DNA of 64,000 nt from Parcubacteria group bacterium (GCA_943350175.1 CALQZX010000001.1:21818-85817), one strand, 5' to 3'; counted from the first letter of the stretch, positions 21,969 through 30,266 are shown. Notes: a model not told the origin generated them from the sequence alone. A program made the numbers and translations.

Positions 21969-23222
21969 ATGAGTTTCCACTTTCTCACGATTGGTTTTTC
22001 TACAAAAAAAATGCATGTGCAGGCAGCCTTAAACGCAGGGTTTAAGGTTAGCTTGCTCACCACCTTCGATAAGTACGAAGATGAATTTAAAAATATTTTT
22101 CATAAAGTTTTGTTAGTTGAAAATATTTACAATTGGCAGCAAATAAAAGATGTTATCGATAAAACAGAAAAAATTGATGCTGTCGTAACAAGATATGAGG
22201 GTTATGTCAGTGTTATGGGGGCCATTAATCAATACCTGGGATTAAATGGCATTAATTATCAGACTGCTAGAAATTTTTGCAATAAATATTCAATGAAACA
22301 AAAGTGGTTGAAATCCGGAGTTCCTTGCGCGGACGGCGTTTGTCTGGACAATCTAGACAAACTTGATTCATTTTTAGAAAAACATTCTTTTCCAATGATT
22401 CTGAAAAAAACCTCAGCAGTTCATTCAAATTTTGTGATAAAAGTTGATTCAAAAAAAGATTTGTTTGAAAAATTAGAATTTTTTAAAACTCAGGTTAATG
22501 GTTATGTCGTTTCCAGGCCTGTTGACGGATATGGTGATAAGCTAAATGAATGCCATTTTTTACTAGAAGAAATGCTTAAAGGAAGAGAATTAACAGTTGA
22601 CACCTTTGTTTTAGATTCAAAATTCGTTCACACTCCAATTTGTGAGTACGTGTTGGCTCATGATTTAGGAATAAATGATTCATATTTGCCAATTAGAACA
22701 ATGCCAATTTCTCTAGATTCCGATCAAGAAAAGATGGTTATTGAAACGGTTGAAAAGGCTTTGGTTGCTCTCTCTGCCAAGAATTGCGTTTGTCACACGG
22801 AGTTGTTTTTTGATGAAAAAAATAATAGCTGCAGAATAATAGAGTCTACCCCCAGAAGTGGAGGAAATCGTGCTGAAATGACCAGGATGACAACGGAATA
22901 TGATTATAATCTGGCAGTCTTTAAAGCGGCTGCAAATCTAGATCTGCAGCCGCTTAAAAAACCAATCAAAGCTGTTTGCGTGGTTGAATATTTTGCTGAA
23001 AAAAGCGGGATGATTGATAAAATTGATTTAAAGTTTTTAAGTAAAAACAAAGCAGTAAGTTTGGTAAAGCTTAGGTATGGAGTTGGTGATTTAGTCAAGC
23101 AAGCCAAATTCGGTGGAAAAACAATTGCAAGCTTTTTTGTTGAGGCGGAAAATTCTTTTGAAAGTAAAAAAATCGCCATCGATTTATTTGAAAAAGTTAG
23201 GAAGTCAATTAAATTAAATTAA
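21969..23222 (+). CDS. ATP-grasp domain protein (carboxylate-amine/peptide ligase-like)
   Basis: pre-ATP-grasp Rossmann-like N-terminus, FPMILKKTSAVHSNFVIKVDSKKDL (ATP-binding lysine strand), GRELTVDTFV and HTELFF motifs typical of the ATP-grasp fold. Confidence 0.5.
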   Translation: MSFHFLTIGFSTKKMHVQAALNAGFKVSLLTTFDKYEDEFKNIFHKVLLVENIYNWQQIKDVIDKTEKIDAVVTRYEGYVSVMGAINQYLGLNGINYQTARNFCNKYSMKQKWLKSGVPCADGVCLDNLDKLDSFLEKHSFPMILKKTSAVHSNFVIKVDSKKDLFEKLEFFKTQVNGYVVSRPVDGYGDKLNECHFLLEEMLKGRELTVDTFVLDSKFVHTPICEYVLAHDLGINDSYLPIRTMPISLDSDQEKMVIETVEKALVALSAKNCVCHTELFFDEKNNSCRIIESTPRSGGNRAEMTRMTTEYDYNLAVFKAAANLDLQPLKKPIKAVCVVEYFAEKSGMIDKIDLKFLSKNKAVSLVKLRYGVGDLVKQAKFGGKTIASFFVEAENSFESKKIAIDLFEKVRKSIKLN

Positions 23223-24179
23223 ATTATTTCTAATGATTTCATTGACTGCTTTTTTATAACCACTTTGGTCTTCAGTAAAAACTTTGGGTAGAATTAAATT
23301 CTTGCTGATCCCAATTTTTTTAGCCTTATCGATGTCTTTCAAGTCTATTTTTCCATAATAAAGCTCGCTCGGATCATAATTGTTTTTTTTAAGATAGTTT
23401 AAGACTTCGACAAAGCCCTCAAAATAAACCAAATCTTTAGTGAAAGCGCCTTTTTTGCTAGTGTCGCAAATACCCCTCTTTTTTTTAAGGGTCCAAGTCC
23501 AAGCTCTTTCTGGATCTTGCCAAGTTTCATAAAAAAAGTTGAAAACGGTGGCAAAATCTTTTTTGAGGGCTAAGTTGACAGCTAAATAATTAGCCGCTGA
23601 TTTGTAGGCCAGCTTATGCTCGCTAATGATTAGTTCATTAATGGCAGCAAGACCCTCGTCTGTGCGCAGATATGGTCCAAAATCGTTCTCTTTTTTCTTT
23701 TTAAACCAAGACTGTGTTTCATAGTTTAGATGTCTAACAATGTGAGTATCAATCTCGTGATTAAGAATGGCTTCTATTTCACTTTTATCAATTGCCACTG
23801 GAAGTCGAACTTTTATAATTTTTTCGTTGTTGTTGACAGCAATACGACTGATAAAATTACTAGAAAAAACAATTCCATAATCGTTCTCCAAATTATAATA
23901 TTTTAATCTTTTTTCAATTAAGCTTTTAATCTCGTCTTGATTTAGAAAAACTTTACTTCTTTGGATTTGCTCTACCAGATTTTTTTCTTTTAGGTGTTTT
24001 TTCAGAATTCTCTTGGCTAGAAATAAATACCAAAATTTTGGCTTGCCGTGTTTACCGAGTTCGCTTTGTGGAGTATTTTTTTTGTAAATAAACTGCGGAT
24101 TGTATTTGAATGAGGAGGCAAAAAATTTTTCTTTTTCACTTTCCAAATTAAGGGGAATTAGGTCGCTTAGTTTAAGCAT
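23214..24179 (-). CDS. DUF1704 / QEGLA-motif protein (MATCAP-like metallocarboxypeptidase fold)
   Basis: TDEGLAAINE matches the QEGLA signature. HEIDTH matches the atypical HExxxH zinc motif of DUF1704/MATCAP tyrosine carboxypeptidases. In other genomes, members of this family sit next to RimK-like ligases. Confidence 0.55.
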   Translation of the reverse strand: MLKLSDLIPLNLESEKEKFFASSFKYNPQFIYKKNTPQSELGKHGKPKFWYLFLAKRILKKHLKEKNLVEQIQRSKVFLNQDEIKSLIEKRLKYYNLENDYGIVFSSNFISRIAVNNNEKIIKVRLPVAIDKSEIEAILNHEIDTHIVRHLNYETQSWFKKKKENDFGPYLRTDEGLAAINELIISEHKLAYKSAANYLAVNLALKKDFATVFNFFYETWQDPERAWTWTLKKKRGICDTSKKGAFTKDLVYFEGFVEVLNYLKKNNYDPSELYYGKIDLKDIDKAKKIGISKNLILPKVFTEDQSGYKKAVNEIIRNNLI

Positions 24180-24196
24180 AAAAACTTTCTGATCTT

Positions 24197-25483
24197 TTAT
24201 TCATCAAATCTAATGATGAAATTTTTAAGATCTTTGCGGCCAATTTCTATTTTATTTTGTTTGCTATTTAGTTTATTGCTGACGATCATGGTGGTTTTGA
24301 CAACTTGATCTTTAATTTTAAATTTGACCTCTACTACTGGCACTTTACCTTCTTCTTGCTCTGATTGGAACCAAAGCAGATCGTCGACATCAATTAAGCC
24401 AAGTTCTTGAGCTAATTTTTTGGAAATGGCACTGCTGAAGCGACCGGTATTTAAAAAGGCGCTGGTTTCAATTTTTTGCTTATGATCTCCCCAGACAATG
24501 ATGTCTTCGTAAAGTGAAACAACTGGAAATTCTGCCTTGTTTTTGATTTTGGCTGCAAAATCACTGGCAAAAAGAGCCTGAGCTACTTTGACGCCATGTT
24601 TGGGACCTTGAATGTTGAGATCCTCCACTCGTTCTAGTCTTCTGCGAAGTCCGGCGCGATTTGCAGCCTGTATGGAAAGTCCTGGAGCAGCATTGATTTC
24701 CACCACCATTGGACCCTTGTCTTTGTGAATAAAAAGATCGATGCCAGTGAATTGTAATCCGGCGACATTACTGGCTATAACTGCTGTTTCTAGAAGCTTC
24801 TCCCATTCAGGGATGATGATGCCATTGAGCTTTTTCTTGGTTCCTGGAAGATATCGAATTGGTTCGCTTTTATGAGCCAGAGCGAAGGTGGTAATGCCTG
24901 TGGCCAAATCAATGCCGACTGCCAAAGCTCCTTGAGCCAAATTGGCACGACCGCCAGATTCTTCCGTTGGCAAGCGCAGCATAGCCATAACAGGAACACT
25001 GTTGAAAACAATCACTCTAATGTCTGGAGTGCCTTTGTAAGAATACTTTAATAATTTTGGATGAATCGGAATTCTTTCCTCAATAATGACGTTGTGATTG
25101 GTGCCGTGGATGCTGTACTGTCCAGAAAGAATGTCACTGCAATGTAATTTGATGTCGTCTAGACCCCATTTGTTGCCAAGCATGTCTGTCCAGGAATCTT
25201 CTGAGGTTTTGCTTCGAAACGGAATAACTCCAGTTCCAGCATAACCATTAGTTGGTTTAATCACGAAATCTTTTTCCAAGTTTTGCCAGTCAAAATCAGC
25301 GATGTCTTCTTCGGTGGCAAGAATGCCGTAAATCTCTGCTGTAGCGATGTTGTTGTCACGCAAGAGGATTTTTGTGGCGTATTTGGAATGAACAATTGCC
25401 TTGGATTTATTTGAACTACGGCTCAAATAAATTGCATTGCGAGCATTGATTCCCAAAAGATCTTTGGCTTTGTGAATAAACAT
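24197..25483 (-). CDS. Alpha-L-glutamate ligase-related (RimK-like ATP-grasp) protein with C-terminal extension
   Basis: LLGINARNAIYL, KYATKILLRDNNIATAEIYG and DFVIKPTNGYAGTGV align with my recollection of the rimK_rel_E_lig consensus. About 120 extra C-terminal residues could be a degenerate retropepsin-like (DUF785-type) domain with NTG in place of DTG. Confidence 0.6.
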   Translation of the reverse strand: MFIHKAKDLLGINARNAIYLSRSSNKSKAIVHSKYATKILLRDNNIATAEIYGILATEEDIADFDWQNLEKDFVIKPTNGYAGTGVIPFRSKTSEDSWTDMLGNKWGLDDIKLHCSDILSGQYSIHGTNHNVIIEERIPIHPKLLKYSYKGTPDIRVIVFNSVPVMAMLRLPTEESGGRANLAQGALAVGIDLATGITTFALAHKSEPIRYLPGTKKKLNGIIIPEWEKLLETAVIASNVAGLQFTGIDLFIHKDKGPMVVEINAAPGLSIQAANRAGLRRRLERVEDLNIQGPKHGVKVAQALFASDFAAKIKNKAEFPVVSLYEDIIVWGDHKQKIETSAFLNTGRFSSAISKKLAQELGLIDVDDLLWFQSEQEEGKVPVVEVKFKIKDQVVKTTMIVSNKLNSKQNKIEIGRKDLKNFIIRFDE

Positions 25484-25485
25484 TT

Positions 25486-26502
25486 TTATTCCTCTTCTTG
25501 TGAGTCGCTTCCATTTGAGTTGTCTTTAAAACTGCTGAATTTGCCATTGCGATTAAACAGATCCTTAAATCTTAAGTACTCAAGAAGGCGTAAGCCAGTA
25601 TATTTACCAATGGCTAAATTAATGATAGCTACACCAATTAAAGTCATTTCCGGTCTTAAAATGACAAATTTTTGTAGTGCTTCTGAGCCAATAATCAGTG
25701 AACATAAAACGGCGATGAGCAGTGTTTCAAAAGTGATTTGTAAGGCTTCTTTTTGACTACTAAAAAGCTGAGTTTCCATAAAATTTTCAGTTAAAAGAAT
25801 AATGATTAATAAAGGAAAGATGCTGATGTTGATAATCAGATTGACGTTGTAGACAGAACCAATTAGTAATAAGGCTAGGATGGCTATGGAAACACTCATT
25901 AGCAGCATGGCCGTTCTTGGTAGCATTGGTAGCTTAAGTTTTTTTAAAACAGGCCTGGTCATTAGGGCGGTGAATAGGACAGCCGCAAAAACAACCACTC
26001 CAGTAGCAATGCCAGTGGAAACAAAAGCTACAGATAGAACCGCTGGGATGTAAATGCCGAAGCCTTTTAATCCGATGACGTGTCTAGAGAAAGCAACTAA
26101 AGAGGCAATGATTGGAAAAATTAATAAAATAACAATAATATTAGCAGGCATACCGCTGCCGATGGCTTTACGAATTGCCTTTTGAACGATGTTGTTCCAA
26201 CTTAGAGCACCGATGGGATGTTCATCAAGAAAAGCAGCAAGAACGCTTTTTTTCTGACCACTAGTCTCGGTAATGTCTTGGTCAGTTTTTTGTTGCAATT
26301 TTTCTACCACCTCAGCTGATGGTGAGGAAAGCTTGGCGCTGTCCGTTGTTATGGCAGTTGCGCTGGCATCTTGTGTAGGTGAGAGAAACACAGTTTCACC
26401 AGCTGGTTTGACTTGAGCCTCAGCAAGACTTGATCTAACCAAAGTAATAATAGAAATGTGAAACAGAAAAAATAGTATTAAAGCGAGTTTATAAATTTTC
26501 AT
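25486..26502 (-). CDS. Polytopic membrane protein (about 7 TM) partner of the RimK-like ligase
   Basis: N-terminal signal/anchor and Ser/Thr/Ala-rich linker, then 6-7 hydrophobic helices, acidic C-terminal tail. Immediately upstream of, and nearly abutting, the ligase gene (3-nt gap). Confidence 0.4.
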   Translation of the reverse strand: MKIYKLALILFFLFHISIITLVRSSLAEAQVKPAGETVFLSPTQDASATAITTDSAKLSSPSAEVVEKLQQKTDQDITETSGQKKSVLAAFLDEHPIGALSWNNIVQKAIRKAIGSGMPANIIVILLIFPIIASLVAFSRHVIGLKGFGIYIPAVLSVAFVSTGIATGVVVFAAVLFTALMTRPVLKKLKLPMLPRTAMLLMSVSIAILALLLIGSVYNVNLIINISIFPLLIIILLTENFMETQLFSSQKEALQITFETLLIAVLCSLIIGSEALQKFVILRPEMTLIGVAIINLAIGKYTGLRLLEYLRFKDLFNRNGKFSSFKDNSNGSDSQEEE

Positions 26503-26522: not shown

Positions 26523-26885
26523 TTACAAAATCAAAGCAAAAGCCCCTTGTAAAAAGCCGATCATGGCAGAGGCTAAAAGTAAGGAGAAAAATTGATTGAG
26601 GTGTATGCCAAGAACAATTACGTTGTTAATGACAAAACCTGGCACGAAATAAGTAGCGAGGTAAAGAATGAAAACATTTATAACTAAAGAGAAGAGGCCA
26701 AGAGTGACAACATTGATTGGCAAAAATAAAATTTTTAAGACTGGTCTCAGCAGTTTTTCCAGCAAGGTGAGAACGATTCCGGCAATAATCAAAGTAAGGG
26801 AATTGCTGTAATCAATATTTGGGAAAAACCAGGCTAAGATAGCGATGGTTAGAATTGAACTAAGGACGGCTTTGATAAATTTCAT
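26523..26885 (-). CDS. Small 4-TM membrane protein, phage-holin-4-like (DUF360-type)
   Basis: LLRPVLKILFLPINVVTLGLFSLVINVFILYLATYFVPGFVINN resembles the superfamily-IV holin/DUF360 pattern. Four hydrophobic segments. Confidence 0.4.
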   Translation of the reverse strand: MKFIKAVLSSILTIAILAWFFPNIDYSNSLTLIIAGIVLTLLEKLLRPVLKILFLPINVVTLGLFSLVINVFILYLATYFVPGFVINNVIVLGIHLNQFFSLLLASAMIGFLQGAFALIL

Positions 26886-27100
26886 ATTTTTTAATCTCCA
26901 AACCTAAAAAAAGTCACGTTCGATGAAAATTTGTGATTTGTTTTAGTTGACAATCTTCTTCTCACTCGGTGAAGTCGCTGTCTATTTGCACTTTGCTAAT
27001 TTAAGATTTTTAGTCAGCTTCTTCAACGCACTTATTTTAAGTTTGGAGATTGAATTGTCTAAATGTAAGTGTAGCACTTAAATTAAATTTAATGAATTAT

Positions 27101-28477
27101 TTAGTCAATTTTCAAGAATTCTCCAGACCTCAATCTCGTGTGGTGTTTTTTGGCGAAGCGATGCGCTTCATCGCGCAATCTTTGCAACATTTTAAGGGTT
27201 GGATGGTCTGCTTGCAGTGGGATTATTTTTGTTTCGATTCCATCTTTCTTGTTTTCATCTTTTATAGAGACAACGAGTCTGTCTGGATTTTTTACCAAGC
27301 CAATGATAGGAATTTCCAAATCCCAAACTTTGGCAACCGCTCTAACTTGGCCTCTTCCTCCGTCAATCATAATTAAATCAGCACTTCCCCATTCTGGGTG
27401 TTTTTGCCTGCGCGTAAGGGCTTCCTGAAGCATTCCATAGTCATTGGGAGTGTCTAGGGATTTAATTTTAAAAAATTTATATTCGTTATTATCAATTTCG
27501 CCATCAGCCAGCACCACCATCGAGACCGTAGCCTGCTGTCCCATGGTATTACTGACATCGTAACCTTCAATGCGTTCAAATTTTTGTTGGCTTCCAACAA
27601 TGCCTTCTTGATGAAGGATATGTCGCAAGTGAACTAAAGCTTCTTTGGCTTCTTCTTGCCTGAAATTTGGCAAAATAATGTCTGATTTTAGTTTATATTG
27701 ACTGCTAGTGATTTCTTTTATAAGAGTGATTTTGTTTTTATTGATAAGGGCTTTTTCATAGGCTTCTACTTTTGAAAAAACTAACATTTCTTTTTCTAGT
27801 TCTTTTAGTAAACTATTTTTTTGGCCTTTGAGAAAAGCTATTAGCTGCTTGATGTCTTTTTGATATTCTTCTTTGCTAATTTTTTGGCAGCAAGCTCCGG
27901 AGCAAAGATCTAGATGGTGATAGAGGCAGGCTTTGCTTTTGCTGTCATTTTTTTGATTGCACCATTTAAAAATTGGTCGAATAATTTTAAGTACTTCATT
28001 TAATCGGTTGGAACTGGAAAATGGGCCAAAGAGAGCGAGTTTTTCTTGATAGATTTTTTTGCTTAGATCAGTTTTTCTTACACGCAGTATTTTTGGAAAA
28101 TCTTCTTTGCTAATCAAAATATAGATGTTGGATTTATCATCTTTTAAACGGCTGTTGAAATATGGTTGGTGAGCTTTGATGAGCTCGGCCTCGATTAATA
28201 AGGCTTCAATTTCGCTATCAAGTACCTGATGCTCCACTCTGTGGGCCAGCTCCGTCATTTTCTTGATTTTCCTTGAGAGCAGTGGAGATCTCTTGTAGTT
28301 GGCGACTCTCTTCTTCAAGTTTTTGGCCTTTCCTACGTAGAGAATTTGCGAGTTTTCGTCCAAGAAGGAATAAACTCCCGGCAACGAGGGTAACGACAAT
28401 AAATCCGCCTCCCAAGAAAATGATTTTATTGGGGTCGGCGATTTTGACTTTGATGCTGGGGCTGACTTCGAATTCAT
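27101..28477 (-). CDS. uvrC: Excinuclease ABC subunit C (short form lacking C-terminal HhH)
   Basis: GIY-YIG motif (PGVYSFLDENSQILYVGKAKNLKKRVANY), Cys-rich UvrB-interaction region, C-terminal endonuclease motif LQRLRDEAHRFA. The N-terminal 30 aa of the ORF are probably not translated (overlap with the upstream gene). Confidence 0.75.
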   Translation of the reverse strand: MNSKSAPASKSKSPTPIKSFSWEADLLSLPSLPGVYSFLDENSQILYVGKAKNLKKRVANYKRSPLLSRKIKKMTELAHRVEHQVLDSEIEALLIEAELIKAHQPYFNSRLKDDKSNIYILISKEDFPKILRVRKTDLSKKIYQEKLALFGPFSSSNRLNEVLKIIRPIFKWCNQKNDSKSKACLYHHLDLCSGACCQKISKEEYQKDIKQLIAFLKGQKNSLLKELEKEMLVFSKVEAYEKALINKNKITLIKEITSSQYKLKSDIILPNFRQEEAKEALVHLRHILHQEGIVGSQQKFERIEGYDVSNTMGQQATVSMVVLADGEIDNNEYKFFKIKSLDTPNDYGMLQEALTRRQKHPEWGSADLIMIDGGRGQVRAVAKVWDLEIPIIGLVKNPDRLVVSIKDENKKDGIETKIIPLQADHPTLKMLQRLRDEAHRFAKKHHTRLRSGEFLKID

Positions 28478-30266
28478 TACTTACTGATTGGCCTTCTTTA
28501 AGAATACTAGTGACTTTGATTTTCAATTTTTGGCCAATACTTCCGCTATTATTATAAACGGTGATTGGTAAAACAATTTTGGAAAAAGGTAATATCTTCT
28601 GAATTTTGCTATTTCGATCGAATGAAATTTCACCCTCTTCGCTAGTTATTTGAATGTCCGAAAAATACCAAACTCGGCCAGTTTTATTGAAAATTTGCAG
28701 GTCATAATTGCCTGGAATTTCCAAGCCATAAACCTTTTTACTAATCAGGGTAATTTCTAAATCTGGATTAATTTGAGCGAAGTCCTCTTTTGAGAATTCC
28801 AAATAAACTTTTTTATTTTTTTCATCTTCTTTGCCGATATAAGATCCAGCTGGATAAGGTAGGGTGCTGGAAATTCCATTAGTGGCAAAAGCGATGTGAT
28901 TGAGGTCAAAATTGTTAAAATAATCTATACCACCAGTAGTATCTTCCCAGGTAGGATCTACTTGGGTCCAAGCTTTCTTTTCATCATCATAATACTCTGG
29001 CCAAGTATGCAAAATATCTGCAGCTAAATTACTTGGACGCAATTCTTCATTGTTGGAATAAGCCATGCCAACCACTCTACGAGCTGGTATGTTTTTTTCT
29101 CTAGCCAAGGCGATAAATAGGTCTGTAAATTCTTGACAGGTGGCATCATTTTTGTTTGTTTCTTTGAGTGCTTCTACTGCACCCAAGCGCTCAAAGTTTT
29201 GATTGAGCGGTTTCTTGGTGTAATTTAGTTCTTTGACTGTGAAGTCATAAATACTTTTGATACTGTTTAAGTTTTTTGCTGCGTTGGCGATTTCTGGACT
29301 TTTGCTTTCCCAGAATTTTTGCTCATTAAGTTGCTCAGGCAAAACTTGACTTGAAGGAATCAGCGGATCTGCTGAAAGAGTCAGCATGACTTGTGCCAAA
29401 AGCTCCACGTTAAATGAATTATTGGCGGGGATTTCATAGGTGGCAATAAAATTGCCATCTTTGTCCTCCTTAATATTATTTGGCATTGGATCTAGGTTGA
29501 TGTAATAAATTTTTTGATGAGGTGTTTCTGGAGGCAAAGTGATTTGAGTTAGAGCATTTTGGCTAGTTGGGTTGTCTAGGTAGTAATTGAGTTTGAGGTC
29601 AAAAACTTGCTTGTTTCCAAAAATTGCTGAGATTGATTGATCCTTGAGATCACTGTAGGTAATGACGTTGTAATCGCCATCTTGTTTGAGGGAGAAATTG
29701 CTTGGATTGATGCGACTAGGAGTATCAAAAATGCTTGGAATTCTTAGCTCCAATTGGTAGCTTTGATACTGATAATGATCGGAGAGTTTTGGAATATTTA
29801 CTTCCAGAACTTTGCCACTGATGAGAGCGATGTCTGAATCGGTATAGCGAATAATCAGCTCATTGGTTTTGCCTTCTCCGACAACTTTTTCATCAAAAGT
29901 GACGCCGATGCTGGTTTGCCCCTTTTGTTTGCTAATTAAGCTTTCAATAGTTTTGCCGTTATTGCTGACTTCAACATTAGTGATATTGGTTGAGCTAATT
30001 ACAATTCCATATTTACTAATAAATAATTCTGGATTTTTATTTTTGATGATAAATTTTTGTTCGACGATGGTTTTGCCATTGGCAGTTACGGTGTAGGTGC
30101 TATGCAGAGAAATAGAGAAATTTTTGGAGCCGTCTGTAGTTGTAACTTCAGTTGTGTTTGAAGATTGGGCAAAGATTGTTTTTGGAGAAAAAACTAAAAA
30201 CAGAAATAAAGACAAAAATGCTTGGAAAAAAAATAATGCTTTTTTGATTCTATTTGAAAACATCAA
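28218..30266 (-). CDS. Transglutaminase-like domain surface protein (signal peptide, C-terminal TM anchor)
   Basis: Signal peptide; ATCQEFTDLFIALAREKNIPARRVVGMAYS is the transglutaminase-like Cys-core motif; C-terminal hydrophobic helix IIFLGGGFIVVTLVAGSLFLLG plus basic tail. Confidence 0.6.
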   Translation of the reverse strand: MMFSNRIKKALFFFQAFLSLFLFLVFSPKTIFAQSSNTTEVTTTDGSKNFSISLHSTYTVTANGKTIVEQKFIIKNKNPELFISKYGIVISSTNITNVEVSNNGKTIESLISKQKGQTSIGVTFDEKVVGEGKTNELIIRYTDSDIALISGKVLEVNIPKLSDHYQYQSYQLELRIPSIFDTPSRINPSNFSLKQDGDYNVITYSDLKDQSISAIFGNKQVFDLKLNYYLDNPTSQNALTQITLPPETPHQKIYYINLDPMPNNIKEDKDGNFIATYEIPANNSFNVELLAQVMLTLSADPLIPSSQVLPEQLNEQKFWESKSPEIANAAKNLNSIKSIYDFTVKELNYTKKPLNQNFERLGAVEALKETNKNDATCQEFTDLFIALAREKNIPARRVVGMAYSNNEELRPSNLAADILHTWPEYYDDEKKAWTQVDPTWEDTTGGIDYFNNFDLNHIAFATNGISSTLPYPAGSYIGKEDEKNKKVYLEFSKEDFAQINPDLEITLISKKVYGLEIPGNYDLQIFNKTGRVWYFSDIQITSEEGEISFDRNSKIQKILPFSKIVLPITVYNNSGSIGQKLKIKVTSILKEGQSVSNEFEVSPSIKVKIADPNKIIFLGGGFIVVTLVAGSLFLLGRKLANSLRRKGQKLEEESRQLQEISTALKENQENDGAGPQSGASGT

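Follow-up and report, generated by a model that had tools for sequence, protein, structure and literature searches.

We analysed a 64,000-nucleotide stretch of DNA (the window) from a Parcubacteria group bacterium (GCA_943350175.1 CALQZX010000001.1:21818-85817) and focused on a minus-strand operon that encodes a seven-transmembrane (7TM) protein, an ATP-grasp peptide ligase and a MATCAP-like peptidase. An earlier sequence-only reading had drawn four open reading frames (ORFs) in this region, and all four are present exactly as drawn, each with a strong match to a family hidden Markov model, beyond what chance motifs would give. These are an L-amino-acid-ligase-like ATP-grasp (ATP-grasp_4) protein of 417 residues on the plus strand (21969..23222; PF13535) and, on the minus strand, a predicted cytoplasmic zinc carboxypeptidase of the MATCAP/DUF1704 type with 321 residues (23214..24179; PF08014), an ATP-grasp ligase of 428 residues with a C-terminal retropepsin-like domain (24197..25483) and an RloB-like 7TM membrane protein of 338 residues (25486..26502; PF14402). 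Upstream of the 7TM gene, on the same strand, lies a gene for a small membrane protein with four transmembrane helices (26523..26885; PF04020/DUF360, 'holin superfamily IV', E 2e-21). Read 5' to 3' on the minus strand, the order is PF04020 gene, 20 nt, 7TM gene, 2 nt, ligase gene, 17 nt, MATCAP-like gene. The four genes are packed as a tight operon, and the PF04020 gene is probably its first gene; a 215-nt gap lies upstream of it, and promoter-like sites are found at 27034..27061.

The ligase was assigned by the sequence-only reading to the rimK_rel_E_lig-like family, and the family searches return hits, one above and one below its cutoff. The 428-residue protein contains LLGINARNAIYL, KYATKILL and DFVIKPTNGYAGTGV, and its RloC/RimK-like ATP-grasp peptide-ligase domain spans residues 5-289 (24617..25471, minus strand). 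PF14397 (ATPgrasp_ST) matches residues 18-287 with 204.9 bits (cutoff 31.4, E 2e-60), and TIGR02291 (rimK_rel_E_lig) matches residues 5-289 over model positions 8-293 of 317 with 256.2 bits, though below its cutoff of 314.2. The Mg/ATP motifs are kept (FVIKP, GYAGTGV, GGRANL and GIDLF...VVEINAAPG), the last of them aligning to GVDI...VMEVNSSPG of Pseudomonas RimK (7qys); the similarity to RimK is limited to this Mg-site region (E 0.003). Neither the ligase nor the MATCAP-like protein has a signal peptide. Judging from its relatives and its genomic context, the ligase would be an alpha-L-glutamate ligase.

The ~130-135 residues at the C-terminus of the ligase lie outside the PF14397 and TIGR02291 matches, and a degenerate retropepsin had been suspected here. 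Pfam searches of this isolated C-terminus did not match the DUF785/Zn_protease family PF05618 at E<=10 and returned only generic aspartyl-protease models at E 0.08-0.14 (gag-asp_proteas, E 0.076). A 32-sequence profile likewise found nothing significant among PDB sequences; homeodomains and argonaute were matched by chance, at E of at least 0.06, from an LWFQ motif. The weak match to Engrailed/CDX homeodomains (E 0.06) runs through ...LA.ELGL....LLWFQ... and was judged a chance resemblance. The suspicion is borne out by modelled structure and by distant relatives. The AlphaFold2 (AF2) model of residues 300-428 has a predicted local distance difference test score (pLDDT) of 83.5, and its top Foldseek matches in the PDB are the DUF785 structure 2pma and the RloA/RloA2 crystal structures 9g58/9g59 (E ~7e-6), followed by Ddi1 and retroviral proteases. 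A distant ortholog of 471 residues (locus L062) passes PF05618 'Zn_protease', which is DUF785, in the same region (E 6e-9, 36 bits against a cutoff of 27). In hhalign, the window-type profile aligns to canonical DTGA domains and stand-alone RloA with a probability of 99.7%, a value partly inflated by the linker common to the orthologous fusions, and N-T-G-R falls on D-T-G-A. The domain occupies residues ~320-428 (24200..24526, minus strand), and N345-T-G-R replaces D-T-G-A at 24440..24451 on the same strand. Of 121 close homologs, 111 have Asn where the catalytic Asp would be, and Arg is invariant where Ala follows in the canonical motif. Since RloA D48N is catalytically inactive (PMC12239564), this pattern indicates a conserved pseudo-protease. 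By sequence and modelled fold, the extension is a retropepsin domain that has lost its catalytic Asp and is predicted to be dead. The window locus has no separate DUF785 gene; its retropepsin is the C-terminus of a predicted cytoplasmic ligase.

The product of 23214..24179, placed in the DUF1704 family because of its HEIDTH and TDEGLA motifs, is matched by PF08014 (MATCAP/DUF1704) over residues 54-302 with 104 bits (gathering threshold 27, E 1e-29). The HEIDTH zinc/catalytic motif is encoded at 23742..23759 and the EGLA of TDEGLAAINE at 23646..23657, both on the minus strand. A match to the QEGLA model TIGR02421 had also been anticipated; the protein does hit it, with 96 bits, and stays far from the equivalog cutoff of 338.65. 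Since its motif is DEGLA and its score this low, the protein is a relative of TIGR02421 outside the equivalog. A single-sequence phmmer search of all PDB chains found human MATCAP alone (KIAA0895L; 7z5g, 7z6s; E 5e-34, full length). In the alignment to 7z5g, HEIDTH corresponds to HEIGTH and TDEGLA to TEEGLA, and the glutamate changed in the E-to-Q catalytic mutant 7z6s corresponds to E142 of the window peptidase. The AF2 model (pLDDT 92.8) superimposes on 7z5g with a Foldseek E of 2e-20, TM scores of 0.89/0.86 and a root-mean-square deviation of 2.6 A over 322 columns, and by alignment both HExxxH and the Glu of EGLA stand where they do in the human enzyme; no other fold in the PDB was significant (next E 0.06). 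HExxxH and [EDQ]EG[LM]A are present in 114/114 collected homologs. On this sequence and model evidence, the 321-residue protein is a true MATCAP homolog, for which carboxypeptidase activity is predicted.

Within a family of 1,647 cluster representatives at E<=1e-3 (clusters at 50% identity, one representative each), the window peptidase belongs to a ~320-residue 'short' subfamily with DEGLA or EEGLA. Animal KIAA0895/KIAA0895L proteins from Holothuria and Acanthaster (P0296, P0315) match it at E ~1e-33 to 1e-35. An exploratory neighbour-joining (NJ) tree of the top 150 representatives places animal KIAA0895 beside the short bacterial subfamily, with the QEGLA type and a type fused to the ligase (see below) as outgroup, so that the window subfamily is nearer to the animal proteins than to either of these. 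This placement hints at the origin of eukaryotic MATCAP. At one locus (L156:3869-6059), a MATCAP-like gene lies directly downstream of mreB, the gene for bacterial actin, which is curious in view of the cytoskeletal role of MATCAP in eukaryotes; with this one instance, chance may account for it.

The polytopic membrane partner described by the sequence-only reading at 25486..26502 is matched by PF14402 (7TM_transglut; 100.2 bits, cutoff 25, E 2e-28) and has seven predicted helices. NF052267 (RloB) reaches 72.9 bits (cutoff 900) over model positions 314-506 of 508 only, which is the 7TM half, and the protein shares 30% identity with Legionella RloB over 191 residues (E 4e-21). It is composed of a signal/anchor helix (residues 3-21), a low-complexity ectodomain (residues 22-119) that has no Pfam hit and no inactive-transglutaminase domain, seven transmembrane helices (residues ~120-298) and a tail (residues 299-338). 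Hydropathy and the positive-inside rule predict an N-out/C-in arrangement of the seven helices that follow the signal/anchor helix; the Lys/Arg-rich segments are the loop 177-198 and the tail. With this topology, the tail should face the cytoplasm, where both signal-less enzymes reside. The predicted cytoplasmic tail, GKYTGLRLLEYLRFKDLFNRNGKFSSFKDNSNGSDSQEEE (25489..25608, minus strand), finishes in the stretch ...FKDNSNGSDSQEEE, and its last three residues are EEE (...SDSQEEE; 25489..25497, minus strand). Among 140 ORFs of at least 60 residues in the 64-kb window, only the 7TM ORF ends in EE. The sequence-only reading had called the substrate unknown and suggested looking nearby for a conserved small ORF or a Glu-rich C-terminus; the 140 ORFs include no conserved small ORF or other acidic-tailed candidate, and the Glu-rich C-terminus is that of the 7TM partner itself, which thereby becomes a candidate substrate. 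Its encoded Glu-Glu end on the predicted cytoplasmic side is what a RimK/S6-type acceptor calls for.

We compared the window with 79 loci from a genome scan (one genome per species) and with 80 further loci from a metagenome scan that used the MATCAP alignment. The gene order is conserved among relatives. The 7TM gene lies directly upstream of the ligase in 78/79 genome loci, the exception being a contig end, and the MATCAP-like gene follows the ligase directly in 42 of the 79 and in the majority of metagenome loci. One Dojkabacteria locus has it ~4 kb away, and four genome loci end too early to tell. The PF04020 gene keeps its position in nearly all loci with an adjacent MATCAP-like gene and is absent from the fused type.

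Over ~100 non-redundant loci, we observed that the presence of MATCAP, a degenerate retropepsin motif and an EE end of the 7TM tail co-vary. Tails were counted over the non-redundant 7TM sequences of both scans, 75 with and 28 without MATCAP; L009:5016-5621 was left out because its 7TM ORF is cut by an ambiguous base or assembly gap (X in the translation). Where MATCAP is adjacent or fused, 63 tails end in EE (2-5 Glu), 8 in DDQ[A/S]E and 4 otherwise. Where it is absent, EE and DDQ[A/S]E ends number zero each, and all 28 tails end otherwise, mostly in basic residues such as ...RFRKLLKANPKP. The background is low, with EE ends on 1.9% of the other ORFs of at least 200 residues in these loci. 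Ahead of the Glu run, the residues vary by clade (SQEEE, GLEE, IIEEE, LMEEE, HIEE), and close relatives differ in how many Glu they have. The retropepsin motif is non-canonical in 42/42 genome loci with adjacent MATCAP (NTGR, NTSR, KTGR, HTGR, STSR, DTKR); distant loci without MATCAP (Moranbacteria, Kerfeldbacteria and others) have canonical D-T-G-[A/L/V] in the fused domain. Kerfeldbacteria-type loci (L067) carry an additional stand-alone DUF785 gene, and the distant loci L059, L062 and L063 one to three additional RimK-like ligases.

MATCAP and an EE end of the 7TM tail also go together in a second lineage, found in the metagenome scan, in which a single protein of ~800 residues joins ATPgrasp_ST (residues 14-285), a retropepsin-like middle (DTGR, DTGL or DTSK) and MATCAP with QEG[L/M]A (residues 475-799). 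The PKD-7TM protein that precedes this fusion ends in ...RHIEE, HIEEEE, KHTEE or HIGEEE. Fused-type loci are L136:3621-6023 as well as L130, L131, L137-L142, L146, L148, L149, L151 and L159. NJ trees of the ligase domain (root, gammaproteobacterial RloC; 100 bootstraps) place basic-tailed lineages without MATCAP between the fused clade and the adjacent-MATCAP clade; each clade is recovered singly (73% and 66% of replicates), and the two group exclusively in 0/100 bootstraps. Nested in the adjacent clade is a subclade without MATCAP (L022, L024, L027, L029 and L078); L020, in the same clade, lacks it too, and the tails of all these loci end in KKE, KED, KKK, KDK or DKE. Since the fused clade is separate and the EE-less subclade is nested, the association between tail and MATCAP reflects at least three evolutionary events rather than one. 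The neighbours of the fused-type loci (QueA, SpoIIE phosphatase, STAS) point to a host that does not belong to the lineage of the window.

Other arrangements were seen as well. The operon at L154:1502-5702 has a pair of RimK-like ATP-grasp genes, then two MATCAP-like paralogs in tandem, and no 7TM gene, so the partnership of MATCAP-like peptidases with RimK-type ligases is not confined to one architecture. The Dojkabacteria-type loci (L059:5307-12262, L150, L153, L158) hold a 7TM gene with the tail ...GRDDDK, a ligase whose retropepsin domain has DTGV, three further ATP-grasp genes and a convergent MATCAP-like gene of 387 residues; they are a multi-ligase variant in which the tail is Asp-rich instead of Glu-rich. 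Two canonical DTGA Patescibacterial loci (L062:7404-11906 and L063:7262-11052) have one or two additional RimK-like ligases downstream, one of which has a weak TTL-family match (PF03133, E 2e-8). Each continues with an ORF of ~850 residues, which at L062 is a class A penicillin-binding protein by Pfam.

By homology, the 7TM and ATP-grasp genes of the window are a Patescibacterial variant of the RloB/RloC pair. The two systems have in common the RloB-type 7TM half, the RloC-type ATP-grasp enzyme, a retropepsin of the RloA/DUF785 fold and adjacent, co-oriented genes. In the classical rloABC loci of a Legionella plasmid and of Aeromonas, the DTGA retropepsin is separate, RloB has ~510 residues with an ectodomain, and RloC has ~320 residues and no extension. 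The window, in contrast, lacks the inactive-transglutaminase ectodomain and adds a MATCAP-type metallocarboxypeptidase, and its retropepsin is dead (NTGR) and fused to the cytoplasmic ligase, whereas RloA is secreted and encoded by a separate gene. It also has an encoded oligo-Glu end that is missing from the two gammaproteobacterial RloB proteins examined, both of which have basic tails, and its host belongs to the Patescibacteria rather than the Proteobacteria. In Pseudomonas aeruginosa, RloA is a secreted retropepsin that cuts runs of at least 8 Glu, and deletion of rloB or rloC suppresses the defects of cells without the proteases (the rloA1-3 triple mutant); genome searches in that study gave no poly-Glu substrate, and the roles of RloB and RloC were left unknown (PMC12239564; Lormand et al., mBio 2025).

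Two further systems resemble the window. RimK lengthens the ...EE C-terminus of ribosomal protein S6 by up to ~15 Glu (PMC4431377), and RimB, like RloA, cleaves poly-Glu (PMC12239564). The RimK/RimB/S6 (RpsF) system combines a RimK-family ATP-grasp enzyme, a poly-Glu-directed peptidase and an encoded Glu-Glu C-terminus, all cytoplasmic, and served as the template for the mechanism proposed below. It differs in that the candidate substrate of the window is a neighbouring polytopic membrane protein and not S6, the peptidase is a zinc exopeptidase and not an aspartic endopeptidase, and the ligase is of the RloC/TIGR02291 branch. In eukaryotes, the MATCAP-family enzymes TMCP1/2 act on tubulin, where they cleave off C-terminal Glu and trim polyglutamate chains (PMC10499314). 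The peptidase homolog (26% identity, TM 0.89), the zinc site and an ATP-grasp-fold partner ligase are shared between the window and the MATCAP/TMCP1-2 (KIAA0895L/KIAA0895) and TTL/TTLL machinery, as is, in our proposal, a substrate with an acidic, Glu-rich C-terminal tail. Unlike that machinery, the window has no tubulin and no microtubule-binding N-terminal region, its ligase is of the RimK/RloC type, all parts sit in one operon, and the proposed modification would be on the main-chain C-terminus instead of a side-chain branch. The proteobacterial TIGR02421/TIGR02291 pair comprises the same two families, for which the window proteins score below the equivalog cutoffs (96 vs 339 and 256 vs 314 bits). 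A comparative-genomics prediction by Iyer et al. in 2009 reportedly already paired RimK-like ligases with peptidases and 7TM-transglutaminase proteins.

The sequence-only reading took the ligase and the peptidase for a pair that adds and removes C-terminal amino acids, and the family matches, the position of the HExxxH motif and the synteny all support this. The analogy to tubulin that it drew holds for the ligase/peptidase logic and not for tyrosination; the closest precedent is polyglutamylation, as in RimK/RimB, Rlo and TTLL/TMCP. We propose that the ligase extends the encoded Glu tail of the 7TM partner and that the MATCAP-like carboxypeptidase trims it, a mechanism that we consider about as likely as not. 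The 7TM protein would sit in the membrane with its oligo-Glu tail (...SDSQEEE) on the cytoplasmic side, the cytoplasmic ligase would use ATP to add alpha-linked Glu to this C-terminus, as RimK does on S6, and the MATCAP-like exopeptidase would take Glu off singly, as TMCP1/2 do on tubulin. Tail length could then act as a reversible signal or alter a property of the membrane protein. Recruitment of an exopeptidase would have made the endopeptidase domain dispensable as a catalyst, and the dead retropepsin domain was most likely kept as a module for dimerisation and/or for binding the acidic tail, in keeping with the Arg gained in the old active site (DTGA to NTGR). Here we infer which amino acid is added, what the substrate is and what physiological output results.

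Several observations weigh against this mechanism. The glutamate specificity of the ligase is assumed, having been taken over from its relatives. Canonical systems, with DTGA and without MATCAP and including Pseudomonas-type RloB homologs, have no Glu tail, so that either the 7TM tail is not a family-wide substrate or the ligase needs no acidic primer. Even with MATCAP present, 12/75 tails do not end in EE: besides the 8 with DDQ[AS]E, these are IINNK, ILER, IISE and LLKD. Few independent events, about three, underlie the co-variation, and the NJ trees have only moderate support (66-73%). Finally, Pseudomonas RloA is periplasmic and RloC is cytoplasmic, an arrangement easier to reconcile with an exported product than with a cytoplasmic tail.

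This last point leads to the alternative that survives best, although we consider it rather unlikely. The ligase may make free or exported poly-alpha-glutamate or another peptide, or build on a non-protein acceptor, with the 7TM protein as exporter or scaffold and the peptidases limiting or recycling the polymer. The EE tail would then be no substrate; it would serve for docking, imitate a primer or act as an autoinhibitory pseudo-substrate, by which the MATCAP-like enzyme and the ligase are brought to the membrane or regulated there. The secretion of RloA, the cytoplasmic location of RloC and the suppression of the rloA1-3 triple mutant by loss of rloB or rloC would suit a toxic product able to pass through the membrane. 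RimK is able to make polymers from free Glu (Kino 2011, cited in PMC4431377), canonical 7TM partners do without Glu tails, the Pfam name of the ligase family is 'sugar-transfer associated', and some loci have additional RimK-like ligases and a PBP1 gene downstream. However, both peptidase modules are cytoplasmic in this lineage and would have no access to an exported product. Docking alone also explains poorly why the number of Glu is free (2 to 5) in close relatives, yet their identity and terminal position are fixed. The carboxypeptidase family, which acts on the C-termini of proteins, is found specifically together with a protein whose last residue is the one it prefers.

A single-residue cycle on a separate protein, closer to tubulin tyrosination, appears improbable. 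In such a cycle, the L-amino-acid-ligase (LAL)-type ATP-grasp enzyme encoded at 21969..23222 would add the residue that the MATCAP-like enzyme removes; MATCAP was indeed discovered as a detyrosinase (7z5g/7z6s), and one to three additional RimK-like ligases stand beside the core in other lineages. The 417-residue protein is matched by PF13535 (41.9 bits, cutoff 27, E 1e-10) and shows weak similarity to BacD/PRK07206, with every NCBIfam equivalog far below its cutoff (BacD, 47 vs 850 bits). Its gene had been described as divergent; in fact it and the MATCAP-like gene converge and share 9 nt at their 3' ends (23214..23222). An ATP-grasp_4 gene is found near the MATCAP-like gene in 22 loci, about a fifth of the MATCAP type, mostly directly downstream and convergent; 8 of these neighbours are close orthologs and 14 reach only ~55 bits. 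The LAL-type gene is absent from ~80% of MATCAP-type loci, is encoded on the other strand and comes from families of ligases that form dipeptides, and within the window neither a conserved small ORF nor an acidic-tailed protein besides the 7TM partner offers itself as the separate substrate. We rejected the LAL-type enzyme as a core component because its gene is convergent and missing from most loci; it may be an accessory ligase.

That the EE end is a compositional quirk hitch-hiking with MATCAP-bearing clades, unconnected to the enzymes, seems highly improbable: CPR (Candidate Phyla Radiation) proteins are Lys/Glu-rich, one large clade holds most MATCAP-positive loci and four of these loci lack an acidic terminus, but EE ends are rare in other ORFs of the same loci, the pattern recurs in the separate fused clade with its different 7TM architecture (PKD-7TM), EE is lost in the nested MATCAP-less subclade, and the terminal Glu run persists while the residues before it are wholly different by clade.

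Stated more generally, our proposal is a bacterial 'tail code', in which one operon supplies a RimK/RloC-type ligase and a MATCAP-type carboxypeptidase that add polyglutamate to the cytoplasmic C-terminus of a polytopic membrane protein and take it off again; we put this forward tentatively, as a possibility that stands somewhat below an even chance. If true, the system would be a prokaryotic antecedent of the MATCAP/TTLL machinery that later came to act on tubulin tails, and the missing substrate of Rlo-type systems, which in Pseudomonas are tied to osmotic tolerance, biofilm and antibiotic tolerance, would be an RloB-type 7TM protein or pass through one. The link of bacterial MATCAP to ATP-grasp ligases by adjacency, fusion and a co-varying acidic tail suggests that tubulin is younger than the ligase/carboxypeptidase logic on which its code is built. 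For the MATCAP-type variants, there is now a candidate substrate, since the last residue of the invariant 7TM partner is the one preferred by the two peptidase families associated with it.

The component families are all known, and a ligase/peptidase/7TM system was partly characterised in 2025; the literature searched gave no account of what bacterial MATCAP/DUF1704 homologs do. New relative to that literature are the fused, inactivated retropepsin and the apparent takeover of its function by a MATCAP-type carboxypeptidase, the proteins in which ligase and MATCAP are fused, and the encoded oligo-Glu 7TM tail as candidate substrate. The replacement would be a natural case of non-orthologous substitution, with an aspartic endopeptidase kept as a pseudo-enzyme and a zinc exopeptidase recruited. 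The module is widespread in Patescibacteria, and since their reduced genomes keep few regulatory systems, a conserved modification of a membrane-protein tail is likely to be physiologically important.

Other roles and origins were considered for the locus. A function in anti-phage defence was rejected, with zero PADLOC hits among five proteins. A plasmid or phage origin was likewise rejected: tblastn of the MATCAP-like protein against 72,556 plasmids gave zero matches, and the ligase matched three records in the same collection, all of them classical rloABC loci. The nearest relatives of the window locus are labelled Pacebacteria/Patescibacteria. Contigs L002-L007, L012, L052 and others resemble Patescibacteria in gene content, are 50-89% identical to the window (L005 is CP011212.1) and are labelled 'uncultured Pseudomonadales/Gammaproteobacteria/Bdellovibrionales' or 'candidate division TM6'; these taxonomy labels look unreliable.

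Upstream of the operon lie uvrC (27101..28477, minus strand) and a gene for a secreted or membrane-anchored transglutaminase-core protein (28218..30266, minus strand; PF01841, E 3e-14). As listed, the two ORFs overlap by 260 nt, so the listed start of uvrC is probably an internal ATG. The idea that the transglutaminase-core protein is a split-off RloB ectodomain found no support (BLASTP against Legionella RloB, E 2.2). Judged by eye, the protein retains Cys/His/Asp. Both genes lie directly upstream of the operon throughout the adjacent-MATCAP lineage, down to ~36% identity, and the place of the transglutaminase-core gene beside uvrC looks like lineage synteny.

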